DNA from: an uncultured Lachnospiraceae bacterium
GTDB lineage: Bacteria > Bacillota > Clostridia > Oscillospirales > CAG-272
Assembly (NCBI GenBank): GCA_964430755.1
Contig: CAYSFT010000001.1
Span: forward strand, 31,358-95,357
Direction of reading: 5' to 3'
Length of the DNA: 64,000 nucleotides
In this document: positions 3,104 to 27,053 of the stretch, piece after piece
How the letters are laid out: each line of letters begins with the position of its first letter
Position numbering within the stretch: position 1 is the stretch's first letter
Program-made: the position numbers and the translations under genes
The notes under the pieces: model-generated
What the model was told of the DNA's origin: nothing
The model's input: only the letters and a program-made list of their open reading frames with translations
The model's database searches: none

Positions 3104-3129
3104 TATATTATTCTGTTAAAAGCCGTTTG

Positions 3130-4719
3130 TCACTGAAACTTCACGTCATATGTGAGTTTACCGTTTGCCGGATACTCACCTGCAAGAACGTCAAGCGTAT
3201 AAAGCGTATTGATAGGCGAGCAGGTTCCGATAATAACACGCGGAATATGCGGAATATCCTCAAGAACATACGGATTTCCGAAATGAACAATAGTCGATAT
3301 GCGACCAGTTATCTGAAGCGCTTCCATAAGCGTGGTTATACGTGCGGTAAAGCATTCACGACCTAAATATGCACAGCTTCTGAAGAAGGTCACAAACACA
3401 ACATCATCACAGTTCTCCGCGCCTCTGAGAACACGCATATTTTCGCTCACACTCGGGAACTGGCTGATCATTGTAAATTCGGAATTCGGATAAAGCTCCT
3501 TGAGTCTGTCCGCTATTTTGAGAGGACTGTACCAGTCGCGGCTGAACGTATCTACCTCGGCACGGTTATTGATGTCAACCGTGGTTTCGGTAAGTATCGC
3601 AAAATAATGCTTTCCGTCGCGTGAAAGTGTCACAGGCACGCCGTCGTCTGTTTTAGCAAAAACGGAATCACGGTTGATCTTATCAAAATCAGTGAGGTCT
3701 TTATCTGTAAGTGCGGTATACTTAGGTTCGGCAAGTGTTTTATGCTGTGCCGCAAGGATTCGTGTAACAGCCTCGTCAAGACGCTCATCGGATATAATAC
3801 CGTCATCGTAGGATTGACACATTGCATCATAAGCAGCCATGTGGTCTCCGTCCCATGCAAGCGCAATATCGTTTCCGTGTCCAACCGAAAGACCGACGCC
3901 GTGCACCCTGCCGAATTTTGCGACTATACCGTGCATACAAAGAGCATCTGTAACGGCGAAACCGTCAAAGCCTTGCTCACGGATGATGCCGATAACCTTT
4001 TCCGAAAGGCTTGCAGGATAGTCGGGATCAATATTAACATAACGTGCATGACGTGTCATGATTCCGTCAAGAAGTCCCTCTTTCATGAGCTCAAGATACG
4101 GATAAAGATTATAGTCAAGCAGTTCCTCAACAGTCGCCTCCGAAATAGCCTCTGCCATATGCGAGTCCATTGCACCCGCGGCACCCTCTCCGGGATAATG
4201 CTTTCCAACAGTTAAAATACCGCCGTCATGCATACCTCTTGCAATAGCGGCTGCCAGCTTTGCAACTTTTTTCTTATCGCTTCCGAGAGAACGGATATTG
4301 GTTCCGACCATACATCTGCCGTCTGCAATATCAAGAATCGGATTGCAAACCACGTTGTAACCGAGTTCACGCGCGGTCACAGCAGTCACCTTGCCAAACA
4401 TATATGCACCGTCCTCGCTGTCGATCATTCCGAGTGCATTGTGCTTACCGATCGAGCGCTCATCGCCGATTCCGCTTTCCGCATCACACATAATAAGGAT
4501 CGGATAATCGGCAGCCTCCTTGATTTTGTCGATTCTTGCCTTTGTGACATCGGGATGATCTTCATCGAAATTCACCCATACAGCGCCGACCGAATGCTGT
4601 TTTATAAGCTCTATGACACAATCAACTTGTTCGGGTGTTGCCTCTCTGAAAACCGTCGCAATTGTGACAAATCCGAGCTTTTGCTTTAAGTTCAGTTCTT
4701 CAAGCTTGAGTTCTCTCAT
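3130..4719 (-). CDS. Glycoside hydrolase family 3 protein (NagZ/beta-hexosaminidase- or beta-glucosidase-like)
   Basis: KHYPGEGAAGAMDSH motif (GH3 KH(F/Y)PG.G...DSH) with an upstream D-rich catalytic region. ATG at 4719 has a GGGGG RBS 7 nt upstream, so the ORF-track start at 4743 is less likely. Confidence 0.75.
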   Translation of the reverse strand: MRELKLEELNLKQKLGFVTIATVFREATPEQVDCVIELIKQHSVGAVWVNFDEDHPDVTKARIDKIKEAADYPILIMCDAESGIGDERSIGKHNALGMIDSEDGAYMFGKVTAVTARELGYNVVCNPILDIADGRCMVGTNIRSLGSDKKKVAKLAAAIARGMHDGGILTVGKHYPGEGAAGAMDSHMAEAISEATVEELLDYNLYPYLELMKEGLLDGIMTRHARYVNIDPDYPASLSEKVIGIIREQGFDGFAVTDALCMHGIVAKFGRVHGVGLSVGHGNDIALAWDGDHMAAYDAMCQSYDDGIISDERLDEAVTRILAAQHKTLAEPKYTALTDKDLTDFDKINRDSVFAKTDDGVPVTLSRDGKHYFAILTETTVDINNRAEVDTFSRDWYSPLKIADRLKELYPNSEFTMISQFPSVSENMRVLRGAENCDDVVFVTFFRSCAYLGRECFTARITTLMEALQITGRISTIVHFGNPYVLEDIPHIPRVIIGTCSPINTLYTLDVLAGEYPANGKLTYDVKFQ

Positions 4720-20389: not shown

Positions 20390-20462
20390 TTTTAACCTCA
20401 AAAACAAGATTAGTCAAAATTGGCACAACTTTTTGTTGTTTGTTTGCCCGACTATATTGTAT

Positions 20463-20491
20463 ATTATACTACACTTTCGTCATTTTGTCAA
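20463..20491 (-). promoter_or_regulatory. Consensus sigma-A promoter upstream of rsmE (TTGACA-17-TATAAT on minus strand)
   Basis: Reverse complement: TTGACA (20491-20486), a 17-nt spacer, then TATAAT (20468-20463). Confidence 0.6.
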
Positions 20492-20559
20492 ATATTTTAG
20501 CGAAATTTTTTGCATATTTTTTTATCAAACGCGAAAAAAACCGTTATTTTTTCCAAATT

Positions 20560-21567: not shown

Positions 21568-22707
21568 TTATTTATTGAACAGTTTCTTTATAAAGCTGCT
21601 TTTCTTTGTGTTGTTCTTCTCTCCGAGACTTTCGGCGAACTTGCGCAGTAAATCCTTCTGTGCCTCCGTAAGTCCGCGCGGAGTTTCGATTGAAACCGCA
21701 AATATGAGGTCACCTCGGCTCTTGCTGTTGACATAAGGAATACCGCGTCCGCGAAGCGTAAATTGCGTGCCGTGCTGTGTTCCCTCGGGAATGTTATATG
21801 TTTCCTTGCCCTCAAGCGTCGGAATCTCTATCTGTGCACCGAGTGCCGCCTCTGCATAGGTTATCGGCACTTCGCAGTATATGTTGTAACCGTCGCGCTC
21901 GAAAATCGGATGCGGACGAACCGAAACTGCAATAATGAGGTCACCTGCCGAGCCGCCGTTTCTGCCGCTGTCGCCCTGGGAGCGAATCGCAACCTTTTGA
22001 CCGTCATCAATACCTGCAGGAATCGTCACCTCAAGCTTCTTCGAGTTCTTAACATAGCCCTTACCCTTACAGTAAGTGCACGGTTCTTTTATCTTTTTAC
22101 CGGTACCGCCGCAGTCTTCACAAGGACGTGTCGTCTGCATCATACCGAGCATAGTACGCTGCTGAACACGTACAGTACCCGTTCCGTGACAGGTTGAACA
22201 AGTGTCAACAGTAGTTCCCTTTTTTGCTCCGGAGCCTTCACATTCGGGACATTTTTCAATCCGTCCGTAGCTTATTTCCTTTTTGCATCCGAACGCCGCT
22301 TCCTCAAAAGAAATCGTTACGCGCTGAAGAATATCACCGCCGCGCATCGGACCGTTACGGCGAGACGACTGTGAGCCGCCCATACCGCCACCAAAAAAGC
22401 TGCCGAAGATGTCGCCGAAAATATCAGAAGCATCAAAACCGCCAAAGCCCCCAAAACCGCCCTCAAATCCGTCCTGACCGTCAACTCCTGCATGACCGAA
22501 CTGATCATAGCGCGACTTTTTCTCGGGATCGGACAGTACGGCATAAGCCTCATTGACCTCTTTGAAATTTTTCTCGGCTTCAGCATCGCCCGGATTCATA
22601 TCGGGATGATATTTTTTTGCAAGCTGACGGTAAGCCTTTTTAATCGCCGCCTCGTCAGCCGATTTATCGAGGCCGAGCACCTCGTAATAATCTCTTTTAT
22701 CTGCCAT
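21568..22707 (-). CDS. dnaJ: Molecular chaperone DnaJ
   Basis: J-domain with HPD, a G/F-rich region and four CxxCxGxG zinc-finger repeats. Confidence 0.97.
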   Translation of the reverse strand: MADKRDYYEVLGLDKSADEAAIKKAYRQLAKKYHPDMNPGDAEAEKNFKEVNEAYAVLSDPEKKSRYDQFGHAGVDGQDGFEGGFGGFGGFDASDIFGDIFGSFFGGGMGGSQSSRRNGPMRGGDILQRVTISFEEAAFGCKKEISYGRIEKCPECEGSGAKKGTTVDTCSTCHGTGTVRVQQRTMLGMMQTTRPCEDCGGTGKKIKEPCTYCKGKGYVKNSKKLEVTIPAGIDDGQKVAIRSQGDSGRNGGSAGDLIIAVSVRPHPIFERDGYNIYCEVPITYAEAALGAQIEIPTLEGKETYNIPEGTQHGTQFTLRGRGIPYVNSKSRGDLIFAVSIETPRGLTEAQKDLLRKFAESLGEKNNTKKSSFIKKLFNK

Positions 22708-22845
22708 GTGTATCTCCTCAATTTCAGGAAAATTGATAAATCTTTTTGTTTTCAGACTATTTCTTGTCCGCTTAACTTAATTATTATACTATATTATTTG
22801 AAATAAATAAACAATAATTTGTAAATTCGCAGTTTTTGTGGGGGG

Positions 22846-23300
22846 GAGTGGTTAGTGTTTGCGTATAGGAGATACGGTCGCTTTTTGAAAAAAGCTCCGC
22901 AAAAACTTTAATATACGCTATCGCTTCACAGGTCCATCGCATAAAGCTCCGAATATACGCTCTCGGTAGTCGGGAACCCTCCTCACTCCGTCTCCTCCGA
23001 CTCCGTTCGGTATCCCAACGACCGTTTTACGGCAATCGTTCGTTAAATCACATTAATACTGTTTGCGGCACAAAAGTTACATTTATGCAGCAGAAGCTAA
23101 AGATGTCGTTGCAGAAATGGCAACCGATATGCGGTTGTTGGGAAGGTGAGCGAACGCGGAGGAGCGTGAGCGAGATGGGCCCCGACTACCGAGAGCGGTT
23201 TCGAAGCGGAGAACAAACACTCTGTGAGCTTTGCGTTCATTAAAGTTTTTTGCCAGGCTTTTTTTCAAAAAAAGCCGCGTATCCCCTTTATGCTTCGATT
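22846..23300. repeat. Imperfect long inverted repeat (~180-nt arms, ~100-nt centre) in the dnaK-dnaJ spacer; MITE-like or structured-RNA element
   Basis: The left arm (about 22846-23025) is the reverse complement of the right arm (about 23125-23300). There is a perfect 17-nt core, CGCTCTCGGTAGTCGGG (22958-22974) against CCCGACTACCGAGAGCG (23181-23197). GATACGGTCGCTTTTTGAAAAAAGCTCCGCAAAAACTTTAAT matches the reverse complement of 23240-23283 with a few indels. Confidence 0.7.
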
Positions 23301-23383
23301 CCCACTCACTAAAACCAAAAACGGGCTGACTCAGCAAAAAACGAGCCAACCCATTTTGATATTAAAACGTCAACGCTGTATGA

Positions 23384-25231
23384 TTACTCGTTTGTCTTAT
23401 CCTCGAAATCTGCGTTATAGAAGGTGTCACCGTCAGCGCTCTGTGCGCCTGCGCCGGGATTTGCACCCATATCGGGACCTGCGCCCTGTGCACCCTGCTG
23501 CTGTGCATAAAGCTTCTCGGCAATCGGATAGAAAGACTTCTGAAGTGCCTCGGTGTCTGCCTTGATAGCCTCAATGTCACCGCCCTTGATGGTTTCCTTG
23601 AGCTTTTCAATAGCAGCCTGAACAGGCGCCTTTTCAGCATCGGTAACCTTATCGCCAAGCTCGCCGAGAGTCTTTTCAGTCTGGAAGATTGTGTTCTCAG
23701 CGTTATTCTTGGTTTCAACAGCTTCCTTCTGCTTCTTGTCTTCTTCGGCAAACTTCTCTGCTTCCTTAACTGCCTTGTCAATATCCTCCTGCGACATATT
23801 AGTCGAGGATGTGATAGTGATGTGCTGTTCCTTGCCGGTGCCCTTATCCTTTGCAGTTACGTTAACGATACCGTTAGCGTCGATATCAAAGGTTACTTCA
23901 ATCTGCGGAATGCCGCGAGGTGCGGGAGCGATACCGTCAAGCGAGAAACGACCGAGAGTGGTGTTGCCTGCCGCCATATCGCGCTCACCCTGGAGAACGT
24001 GAATCTCAACCGAGGTCTGACCGTCAGCCGCAGTGGAATAAACCTGGCTCTTCTTTACGGGGATGGTTGTATTTCTGTCGATAATTCTGTTGAATACGCC
24101 GCCGAGAGTTTCAATACCGAGCGAGAGAGGAGTTACGTCGAGAAGGAGAAGATCCTTAACGTCGCCGCCGAGTACGCCGCCCTGAATAGCCGCACCGAGT
24201 GCTACACATTCATCGGGGTTGATACCCTTGAAGGGTTCCTTGCCGATAAAGTCCTTAACTGCATCCTGAACTGCAGGAATTCTTGTCGAACCGCCAACGA
24301 GAAGCACCTTGTCGATCTGACCAACGGTGAGGCCGGAGTCTGCGAGTGCCTTCTTGGTGGGAGTCATGGTGCGCTCAACGAGGTCTGCTGTGAGTTCGTT
24401 GAATTTTGCTCTTGTGAGAGTTCCGTCAAAGTGCTTGGGGCCTGTTGCATCTGCGGTGATGAACGGGAGATTGATATTGGACGAGGCAACGCCCGAAAGT
24501 TCGATCTTTGCCTTTTCAGCAGCTTCCTTGAGTCTCTGGAGAGCCATCTTGTCATTGCGGAGATCAATGCCGTTTTCGCGCTTGAATTCTTCTGCAATCC
24601 AGTCAATGATACGTGCGTCGAAGTCGTCACCGCCGAGCTTGTTGTCGCCGTGTGTTGCGAGAACCTCGAAAACGCCGTCGGAAATTTCGAGAATGGATAC
24701 GTCGAATGTACCGCCGCCGAGGTCGAATACCATGATCTTCTGCTCTTTTGCGTCCTTGTCAACGCCATATGCAAGTGCCGCCGCGGTGGGCTCGTTGATA
24801 ATTCTCTGTACGTTAAGACCTGCGATCTTGCCTGCGTCCTTGGTTGCCTGACGCTGTGCATCGGTGAAGTATGCGGGAACGGTGATAACTGCGTCTGTAA
24901 CAGTTGTTCCGAGATAAGCCTCCGCATCTGCCTTCAGCTTCTGAAGGATCATCGCGGAAACTTCCTGAGGAGCGTACTTCTTATCGTCGATGGATACCTT
25001 ATAGTCAGAACCCATGTGACGCTTGATGGAAGAAACTGTACGGTCGGGGTTAGTTATAGCCTGACGCTTTGCAACCTGACCAACCATACGCTCGCCGGTT
25101 TTAGAGAATGCAACGACCGAAGGGGTTGTTCTTGCCCCCTCGGGGTTTGTGATAACGGTGGGTTCGCCGCCCTCAAATACAGCGACGCAAGAGTTTGTTG
25201 TACCTAAATCTATACCAATAATCTTTCCCAT
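23384..25231 (-). CDS. dnaK: Molecular chaperone DnaK (Hsp70)
   Basis: [17 protein letters not shown] and [11 protein letters not shown] motifs; full length at 615 aa. Confidence 0.98.
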
Positions 25232-25275: not shown

Positions 25276-25893
25276 TTAATTTGCCACTTTAACAAGAGCC
25301 TCACGAAGCACGCGCTCACCCTTTTTGTAGCCCTTTTGGAAAACCTCAACGATCTCGTTTTCGCCGAAGCTTTCATCGTCTATGTGCATCATAGCGTTGT
25401 GTATCTGCGGATCGAACTGCTCGCCCGGAGCACCGAACTCGGTTACACCTATCTTCTCAAACGATTCCTTTGCGCTCTTAAAAATGAGCTTGATTCCGTC
25501 TGCAAGCTGTGCACCGTCGCTGTAAGCCGCGGCACGCTCCAAATTGTCCATAACCGGAAGTATCGCCGAGAGCGCATCAGCATAAGCGTCTGCGTATATT
25601 CCCTCTCGCTCCTTTGCACTGCGCCTGCGGAAGTTATCATATTCCGCCGCACAGCGAAGATACTTGTCATTCACCTCTGAAAGCTCAGACTGCGTTTTTT
25701 CGAGTGCCGATTTTGTTTCGGCAAGCTCTGCAGTCAGCTTTTTGTTTTCATCCTTCAAATGCTTATCCTCGCGTTTTTTGTCCTTCTTCGATATTTCGTC
25801 GGTTGAGCCGCCTTCGGTTTCGGCGAGAATTTCTTCCCACTTCTGTTCCTTGGCTTCTTCCGGCGACATTTCCTTTTTCTTATCGTCTGCCAT
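25276..25893 (-). CDS. grpE: Nucleotide exchange factor GrpE
   Basis: Acidic/Lys-rich N-terminus, coiled coil, [14 protein letters not shown] and a C-terminal beta domain. Operon position. Confidence 0.95.
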
Positions 25894-26975
25894 TAGCTAT
25901 CCTCCTCTTCTTCGCTGGATTCTATACCAAGCAGTCCACTCGGCTCGAGCATACTGCTGATGTTTTTCGACATATAATCAACAAGCGTTACCACCTTTGA
26001 ATAGTCCATTCGTCTCGGGCCGATAACGCCTATCGCACCGATCACCTTGTCTCCCGACTTGACTGTACGGAATATGAGAGATGAATTGTTCATCACCTCA
26101 ACCGAATTTTCCGAGCCGATGTATACATTAGTCTGATCGGACACGTCATGCGAAAGCACCTCACGGAGATCGTCCTGTTTATCAAATAAACCAAGCATAT
26201 CGCGTACACGGTCTATATCCGAATATTCGGGATAATTGAGCAGGTTGTTAACTCCGTCAAACATAAGCTCGCCGTCATCAACCTCTCCAACCGTTTCGTA
26301 TATGGTGCTGATTATCGGATTTATCAGTCGCTCACCGTCAGGCACTCGCCTTTGCATATCAAGCATAACAGGAAGCGTGATGCCGTCAAGATCAAGTCCT
26401 GCAACGCAGTCGTTGAGAACCACAGTCAGCCGCTCAAGCGTGTCGCGCGAGACATCGAAGCCAAGCCGCACCTGACGCGTTTTAACATTTCCGCTCGCAG
26501 TCAGCATAACGAGAATGAAATTACGCGGCGAAAGATACATTGCATCGAATCTAGCAACTGTCTGCCTTGCCGGTGTACGCTTGAGTGCGACACCCGTGTA
26601 ATTAGTGAGCATACTCATCAACTTTGTCGCACGGTCGAGGATGCGGTCAAGCTCTGCCGCCTTGAGGGTTTGAAGTTTATTGAGTTCACCAAGCTCCGCC
26701 TGAGTCATACGGTACTGCTGCATGAGCTGATCAACATAAAATCTGTAACCAAGCTCGGATGGGATTCTGCCCGATGAGGTGTGAAGCTGTTCAAGATAAC
26801 CCATATCCTCAAGCTCTGCCATCTCGTTGCGGATGGTAGCAGACGAGAATGCTATCTGCTTATATTGAGTTAAATATTTTGAGCCTACGGGCTCACCGAG
26901 ATTGATGTGCGTATCGATTATCGCTTTAAGTATCGCCTTTTTGCGCTCGGATAATTCAGTGTTTTTATCCTGCAT
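25893..26975 (-). CDS. hrcA: Heat-inducible transcription repressor HrcA
   Basis: LSERKKAILKAII...EPVGSK wHTH and IATIRNEMAELEDMGYL. ATG at 26975 is preceded by a GGGAGG RBS. Confidence 0.95.
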   Translation of the reverse strand: MQDKNTELSERKKAILKAIIDTHINLGEPVGSKYLTQYKQIAFSSATIRNEMAELEDMGYLEQLHTSSGRIPSELGYRFYVDQLMQQYRMTQAELGELNKLQTLKAAELDRILDRATKLMSMLTNYTGVALKRTPARQTVARFDAMYLSPRNFILVMLTASGNVKTRQVRLGFDVSRDTLERLTVVLNDCVAGLDLDGITLPVMLDMQRRVPDGERLINPIISTIYETVGEVDDGELMFDGVNNLLNYPEYSDIDRVRDMLGLFDKQDDLREVLSHDVSDQTNVYIGSENSVEVMNNSSLIFRTVKSGDKVIGAIGVIGPRRMDYSKVVTLVDYMSKNISSMLEPSGLLGIESSEEEEDS

Positions 26976-27026
26976 ACACACACCTCCCTTATATTTATAG
27001 CACACGCCCTTATTTGCGGTGTCGTT

Positions 27027-27053
27027 TTAGCACTCATTGCCGCCGAGTGCTAA
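27027..27053 (-). promoter_or_regulatory. CIRCE operator (HrcA binding site)
   Basis: TTAGCACTC-ATTGCCGCC-GAGTGCTAA, a perfect match to the consensus TTAGCACTC-N9-GAGTGCTAA. It lies between the promoter and the hrcA start. Confidence 0.95.

Follow-up and report, generated by a model that had tools for sequence, protein, structure and literature searches.

The dnaK-dnaJ spacer and its palindrome

We analysed a 64,000-nt stretch of DNA (the window) from an uncultured Lachnospiraceae bacterium of the Oscillospirales lineage CAG-272 (contig CAYSFT010000001.1, positions 31,358–95,357), in which a long imperfect palindrome lies between the heat-shock genes dnaK and dnaJ. The genes hrcA (25893–27005), grpE (25276–25893), dnaK (23384–25231; NCBIfam equivalog NF001413, 978 bits), dnaJ (21568–22707; NCBIfam equivalog TIGR02349, 461 bits), prmA and rsmE are all found on the minus strand. 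The dnaK-dnaJ spacer measures 676 nt, and a first-pass annotation of the same DNA had remarked on its length. It is long for the group: among 75 loci from distant GTDB relatives in which both genes were found, 73 have gaps of ~68–447 nt and two have gaps of ~1.5 kb, while the spacers of near relatives measure ~182–459 nt.

The palindrome occupies 22840–23307 (~465 bp), with its axis near 23077 and its outermost pairs joining 22840/22846 to 23307. It reaches slightly beyond the 22846–23300 first given for a ~455-bp imperfect inverted repeat, which is otherwise borne out with its arms as named: BLASTN of the region against its own reverse complement aligned 441 nt at 64.9% identity (E = 9e-8). 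A repeat search paired 22888–22918 with 23233–23263, 22958–22981 with 23174–23197 (88%) and 22882–22905 with 23247–23270. The perfect 17-mer previously noted at 22958–22974, with its partner at 23181–23197, is present, as is a partial direct duplication within the left arm (22891–22965, plus strand; 22891–22923 against 22943–22965). The two arms form units arranged tail to tail, each read 5′ to 3′ inward from a hairpin head at its outer end: unit J on the dnaJ-proximal side (22840–23077, plus strand) and unit K on the dnaK-proximal side (23078–23307, minus strand). The centre, described earlier as ~100 nt of unpaired sequence, has instead a weak palindromic character of its own, and its predicted pairing extends as far as an apical loop of 7 nt (23075–23081). 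BLASTN found no second copy of the element in the window, where the unit and its head are confined to this one locus.

Folding of the minus-strand spacer, a check proposed in the first-pass annotation, gave −251 kcal/mol (z = −14.3), and the plus-strand spacer gave −235 kcal/mol (z = −7.5). The element alone, folded as single-stranded DNA (ssDNA), reached −103.5 kcal/mol compared to −59.4 ± 5.0 kcal/mol in shuffled sequences (n = 100, z = −8.75). The two strands of the element fold alike (−204.5 kcal/mol for plus and −206.6 kcal/mol for minus), with 123–129 long-range pairs and with 16 and 14 G-U pairs, respectively. Such equal folding is what would be expected from a palindrome at the level of DNA. 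The lack of strand bias argues against a role for the RNA, since selection on one transcript would favour G-U pairs on that strand.

The palindrome starts directly past the T tract of a strong intrinsic terminator of dnaK (23311–23357, minus strand), which has a 16-pair stem (23357–23318). The terminator hairpin is also present in two element-free relatives (L083 and L084) and in a relative that carries half of the element (L212). On the dnaJ side, ahead of the 5′ untranslated region (UTR), lies a 45-nt A+T-rich promoter-like block (22783–22827, minus strand; AATTTACAAATTATTGTTTATTTATTTCAAATAATATAGTATAAT) with a perfect TATAAT at 22783–22788. Nine relatives keep this block identical or almost so, and in these relatives the four-fold degenerate sites of dnaJ are near-saturated, at just 41–67% identity to the window. 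A scan with the sigma-70 consensus did not call the block a promoter, and its −35 region is weak. Judging from its conservation and position, it is likely to be the dnaJ promoter or operator. Throughout the clade the order is dnaK terminator, hypervariable gap of ~10–100 nt and conserved block, and it is this gap that the element occupies in the window.

The regions around the spacer contain other potential control features. A perfect operator of the controlling inverted repeat of chaperone expression (CIRCE) type (TTAGCACTC-N9-GAGTGCTAA) is located at 27027–27053, just upstream of hrcA, and is the only CIRCE found. Since the dnaK-dnaJ spacer contains none, HrcA probably does not control dnaJ directly through the promoter-like block of that gene. 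A conserved hairpin in the dnaJ 5′ UTR (22714–22738, minus strand; CAATTTTCCTGAAATTG) adjoins the Shine-Dalgarno sequence GAGGAG and is kept clade-wide (TTATCAATTTTTCAAAAATTGAGGAG); it could be a thermosensor or a translation-control hairpin. A relative with 95% identity in DnaJ (L088) has an unrelated ~130-nt insertion (3113–3270) between the TATAAT and the dnaJ ribosome-binding site; thus, the dnaJ leader is also variable in this clade.

The open reading frames (ORFs) across the spacer exist as first listed, and the judgement that they look non-coding held. None of three spacer ORFs matched an NCBIfam family, they are not kept in L212, and substitutions are spread uniformly over the codon positions (5/6/6). 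A potential 22-residue peptide (MGPDYRERF...) preceded by a Shine-Dalgarno sequence was rejected, as its ATG is found in just one of four copies. The element had not been assigned to any known RNA family by eye, and a search of the window with Rfam 15 likewise gave no match at the gathering score; the best sub-threshold matches were to plant miRNA hairpin models (26 bits against a gathering score of 200). The loci bearing the head motif, described below, gave no Rfam match either, and scans for tRNA and tmRNA found none. A palindrome in the dnaK-dnaJ spacer was not reported in the literature that we searched.

The ~230-nt unit and its hairpin head

Both arms are members of one sequence family. 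An nhmmer profile of 215 positions, built from four arm copies, matched unit J at 22861–23074 (E = 1.4e-56) and unit K at 23293–23082 (E = 3.4e-60). In all, five copies were recovered at E values of 1e-56 to 1e-63, comprising both window arms, L212/L213 and a further contig (L224), and elsewhere the head motif alone scored. Each unit runs from a head resembling repetitive extragenic palindromic (REP) sequences, through a G+C-rich core, into an A+T-rich tail. The core of unit J (22957–23024, plus strand) contains the perfect 17-mer and the motif CTCCTCC, and that of unit K (23132–23198, minus strand) contains the partner 17-mer. Comparison of the four known copies reveals the core to be the best-kept segment, at 71–84% identity. 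Between the window arms, identity is 71% for the core and 49% for the inner arm, whereas that of a window arm to the outside copies is 77–84% and 57–77%, respectively. Because the arms differ more from each other than from copies elsewhere, they are old paralogues and not a recent local duplication, and the palindrome is best read, on these alignments, as a tail-to-tail joining of two ancient paralogous units.

L224, an ENA contig of 603 nt, holds a full unit at 82–293, which is 84% identical to the L212 copy and 76% identical to the window (76.5% for unit K against 89–290). Its flanks are unrelated to the dnaK-dnaJ spacer, with the start of a divergent gene on one side and separate hairpins on the other. 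The contig was found through a HMMER search of 1.84 billion representative proteins with a spurious 88-residue ORF of the element, which returned P0122, a spurious 162-residue ORF read across the repeat copy (L224 81–569), together with P0121, an unrelated repeat protein. In viral contigs, the two matches to the 17-mer were attributed to chance, and the arm profile gave E values of 0.7–1.

Each unit opens with a ~45-nt hairpin head, and the heads are inverted at the two ends of the element. The head consists of a GC clamp, a T run, a C, an A run and a matching GC clamp, adjoined by AAAGTTTTTT; as a motif it reads TAAAGTTTTTTGCC(A)GGC-T7-C-A6-GCC, followed in some copies by GCGTATCCC. The copy in unit K (23240–23286, plus strand; TTAAAGTTTTTTGCCAGGC-T7-C-A7-GCCGCGTATCCCC) has matches in gut metagenome contigs, a phage-labelled scaffold and a replicon of Anaerotruncus colihominis, from 40/41 up to 53 nt in length at 94–97% identity. 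The label "Bacteriophage sp." of MT837614 is doubtful. The copy in unit J (22868–22912, minus strand) has the same motif in a more degenerate form and matches locus L126 (1050–1089) at 97.5% over 40 nt. In plasmid and phage records, matches were confined to ~40–50 nt at either end of the element.

The head motif turned up at least 120 times in a pattern scan of gut metagenome contigs, where it is present singly, in pairs and in tandem arrays of ~37-nt units. We counted 13 distinct stem sequences, complementary over up to 8 bp, and this variation with retained complementarity supports the head being a real hairpin. On the A. colihominis replicon (NZ_CP094683.1), there are 11 copies in 50 kb, seven of which lie at or within 60 nt past a stop codon, in antisense orientation to the motif as given here, and the dnaK-proximal head of the window has the same orientation relative to dnaK. 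The window contains two copies, both inside the element, and none was found in ~60 kb of loci from close relatives. Rfam does not include the motif, nor does the literature that was searched, apart from one coincidental match to a primer. It is apparently an undescribed ~45-nt hairpin repeat that is common in gut Oscillospiraceae, and we classify it as a REP-like intergenic repeat widespread in these bacteria.

Other identities for the head were considered and rejected. It was not taken as a sigma-70 promoter, since inspection found no conserved −10 element downstream, nor as an intrinsic terminator, since the T tract is on the wrong side of the hairpin in either direction. Sites for CodY, sigma-54 or SigD, and a CIRCE, were also rejected by inspection. 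An intergenic cluster of A. colihominis is a mosaic of separate hairpins, not a single foldback equivalent to the long palindrome. In an abundant human-gut species (L090, 1990–2080, and L092–L094), the head is placed between a TATAAT box and a start codon, 23 nt before the ATG and inside the 5′ leader; the N-terminus of the downstream gene looks PolC-like by eye only.

Distribution of the element among related species

The exact DnaJ of the window has no match in the public gene index. Among GTDB species representatives, the nearest are Clostridia, Oscillospiraceae and Eubacteriales metagenome-assembled genomes from animal guts, with DnaJ proteins just 64% identical, and 80 more distant GTDB loci showed no similarity to the element. 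A search of a large protein collection supplied near relatives in a graded series, from 98% identity in DnaJ downwards. The 98% relative is only 88% identical to the window in dnaJ DNA and 62% at four-fold sites; thus, these near relatives are separate species, not strains.

The spacers of close relatives were compared for empty sites, as the first-pass annotation had advised. The element is absent from eight of nine near relatives (DnaJ 90–98%; spacers ~182–322 nt), and the ninth has a single arm. Ordered by identity in DnaJ, element-free spacers measure 207 nt (98%), 241 nt (96%), 319 nt (95%), 195 nt (94%), 182 nt (93%), 215 nt (92%), 183 nt (91%) and 235 nt (90%). The element-free relatives retain both the dnaK terminator and the promoter-like block.

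The relative with a single arm (L212/L213, DnaJ 94–95%) has a 459-nt spacer containing the arm plus a tail, ~75% identical to the window (75% for L212 2617–2861 against unit J). This arm is a mosaic of both window arms. Its tail is oriented as the window plus strand while the L212 flanks run in the opposite sense, so the tail is inverted relative to its flanks. On neither strand does the half-element show a fold signal (z = 0.02 and 0.11). In L084 (96%), a 45-nt mini-palindrome (TGTAGGGGGC-TTTG-CCTTACA) is similar to the outermost stem of the window element and looks like a deletion remnant. A 12.4-kb contig from another 96% relative (L085) ends exactly where the variable gap begins (1–10, TGCGAATTTACA...), which suggests either presence/absence variation between strains or a repeat that broke the assembly.

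Between species, the unit is 75% identical where four-fold sites are 51–62% identical, which would reflect either a degree of constraint on the unit or a spread later than that of the host genes. This comparison is not decisive, since identity elsewhere in non-coding DNA varies between 58% (dnaJ-prmA spacer) and 89% (the promoter-bearing prmA-rsmE spacer). The latter value is for window 20408–20559 against L213, where a canonical TTGACA...TATAAT promoter is found, and rsmE would seem to be served by a strongly conserved promoter of its own.

Origin of the palindrome and its significance

We favour, as the probable explanation, that the palindrome comprises two diverged ~230-nt copies, tail to tail, of an undescribed dispersed non-coding repeat, akin to REP sequences or to transposable elements of the miniature inverted-repeat type (MITEs), held in a dispensable gap and not acting as a conserved regulatory RNA. 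The units would make up a small family, dispersed within a single clade of uncultured gut Clostridia. They may have reached the dnaK-dnaJ gap in two insertions, or in one insertion followed by an old inverted duplication, probably through a hairpin-dependent process carried out by an enzyme encoded elsewhere. We infer this movement by analogy with REP sequences and their REP-associated tyrosine transposases (RAYTs), and with derivatives of the insertion sequence (IS) families IS200/IS605. Later, the arms would have recombined with each other, and related species would have deleted part or all of the element. It may have persisted because it sits outside both transcription units, between the dnaK terminator and the dnaJ promoter-like block, where it would be tolerated. 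Any effect may be incidental: read-through RNA would fold into an imperfect duplex of ~160 bp, a probable substrate of RNase III and an extra barrier, and the DNA palindrome would be prone to deletion.

The first-pass annotation had suggested a MITE-like insertion, and this stands in part. The element is missing from most near relatives, a related copy lies at the unrelated L224 locus, and the widespread motif is inverted at both ends. These ~45-nt inverted heads, with pairing along the whole length, are as expected of terminal inverted repeats, and the size (~465 bp) and the ORFs without family match or conservation also agree with a MITE. Of the MITE picture, a target-site duplication, a partner transposase among the ORFs scanned and a second locus in the window were not found. 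Like the Correia, ERIC, RUP and bcr1 foldback elements, the window element is small, non-coding and intergenic, with inverted ends, a patchy distribution among close species and a related copy at another locus. It differs from them in that neither a target-site duplication nor a related IS with matching ends was found, in being palindromic over its full length and not at its termini alone, and in having arms that look like two separate units instead of one element with terminal repeats.

The head is closer to the REP sequences of Proteobacteria, with their REPIN doublets and bacterial interspersed mosaic elements, which the RAYT, a transposase of the Y1/HUH type, mobilises. It too is a short, repeated hairpin with conserved sequence at its flank; it is intergenic, mostly just 3′ of genes, and has single, inverted-pair and tandem forms, and its stems vary between subfamilies and stay complementary. 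The intergenic repetition typical of REP sequences was seen for the head motif alone. Like a REPIN, the window element consists of two inverted copies that fold together as a single long hairpin, but the pair measures ~465 bp compared to roughly 70–110 bp, with ~180 nt of extra unit sequence in each arm. The host is of a Clostridia lineage, the conserved head flank is AAAGTTTT and not GTAG, and the copy number looks low (two heads in 64 kb). No RAYT was seen in the window or on NZ_CP094683, although no search was aimed at it. The palindrome-associated transposable elements derived from IS200/IS605 provide a third comparison. As in these, the units are defined by a subterminal hairpin and lack terminal inverted repeats, single units exist in L212 and L224, and the absence of a target duplication would be expected. 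In contrast, each unit has only one clear hairpin, with none demonstrated at its opposite end (L224 has a weak second T4-G-A6 hairpin in direct orientation), Rfam gave no signal for TnpA, TnpB or omega-RNA, and the three outer junctions have no common target sequence.

Several results weigh against dispersal of the unit. The flanks of the element (GTGGGGGG abutting one end and ACTAAAAC the other) share no direct repeat, and alignment to the empty sites gives no sharp insertion junction. Dispersed copies amount to the one locus in the window and the one related unit elsewhere, and that unit is on a contig of 603 nt. Scans against NCBIfam and Pfam, the latter of 50 large ORFs, took in the window's 56 largest ORFs and turned up no transposase, integrase or Y1/HUH gene; none is annotated on NZ_CP094683. 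A 21-mer pattern from the core had no match in the metagenome contig collection, and searches with the spurious ORFs, including those of a 5.8-billion-protein collection, gave no copy beyond L224. The 75% identity of the unit between species could reflect selective constraint and not recent spread. Finally, three of the four known units are in dnaK-dnaJ spacers, and vertical descent with loss explains much without mobility.

The most serious rival is a purely local history, in which spacer DNA underwent an old inverted duplication in an ancestor of the subclade, followed by neutral drift, recombination between the arms and whole or partial deletion in sister species. Besides the shared spacer, the lack of a target duplication and transposase and the silence of the core in the metagenome scan, it can draw on the mosaic arm of L212, the remnant-like mini-palindrome of L084 and the L085 contig that stops at the start of the variable gap. 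Weighing against it are the unrelated flanks of the L224 unit, heads that are 94–97% identical in unrelated genomes, and arms that resemble copies elsewhere more closely than they resemble each other; the identity of the unit across species, exceeding that of four-fold sites, is also hard to fit with neutral vertical descent. On balance, we consider a local history unlikely, while treating it as a serious competitor of the dispersed repeat.

The dispersed-repeat reading also has a bolder form, which we put forward as speculative. The unit and head may be parts of an undescribed hairpin-dependent, ssDNA-type mobile repeat system of gut Oscillospirales, a Firmicute counterpart of REP/RAYT with a REPIN-like doublet at this locus, or the conserved CUCCUCC core, which has changed less than synonymous sites, may be a functional anti-Shine-Dalgarno small RNA carried by the repeat.

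A functional RNA is less probable again. The first-pass annotation had raised a structured RNA that uncouples dnaK and dnaJ levels within a polycistronic transcript, and in dnaK read-through transcripts such a structure could adjust dnaJ against dnaK levels as an RNase III processing site, as a stabiliser or by further impeding transcription. The very stable hairpin predicted on the transcribed strand, its location in a heat-shock operon and the better conservation of the unit than of synonymous sites are in keeping with this. We nevertheless think it very unlikely. A terminator and a promoter-like block separate the two genes and are conserved where the element is absent, so that uncoupling is independent of the element. 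The strands fold equally, there is no Rfam match, and the orthologous spacers gave no conserved structure with covariation, as eight of nine lack the element and the single arm in the ninth has a z score of ~0. The processed dnaK-operon transcripts of Firmicutes under CIRCE/HrcA control have the same gene order, with a perfect CIRCE upstream of hrcA as here. The window differs in having a spacer without CIRCE, and its element is not part of a demonstrated processing site, because it lies between the terminator and a separate promoter-like block.

Slightly less credible still is that each unit is a small RNA gene, with an inward-facing promoter-like sequence in the reverse-complemented head (TTGAAA, 18 nt, TTTAAT) and a CUCCUCC seed resembling an anti-Shine-Dalgarno sequence in the core, so that the convergent units would yield complementary RNAs. 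The promoter-like site is found at 22885–22914 (plus strand), its hexamers recur in unit K and L212, and the core is the best-conserved segment. However, L224 (TTTTCC) and the heads of tandem arrays have lost the −10-like hexamer, the core is not followed by a conserved terminator, a fold signal is lacking in single units, and heads in other genomes are mostly located just past stop codons or in arrays, not as promoters. Lastly, amplification and assembly are known to produce palindromic joins as artefacts, but an inverted chimera can be practically dismissed here, as artefactual chimeras are perfect whereas the arms are ~65–74% complementary with many indels and homologous units are present in independent assemblies.

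For the heat-shock operon little changes, since dnaK and dnaJ are already separated and the palindrome is apparently a passenger. The more useful lead is the hairpin repeat of gut Oscillospiraceae, which occurs in Anaerotruncus colihominis and in abundant human-gut species. It seeds larger palindromes, and it can break assemblies and mimic structured RNAs in genome scans; such repeats also seed false gene calls, such as P0122. If a cognate enzyme exists, REP/RAYT-like biology would be extended to Clostridia.

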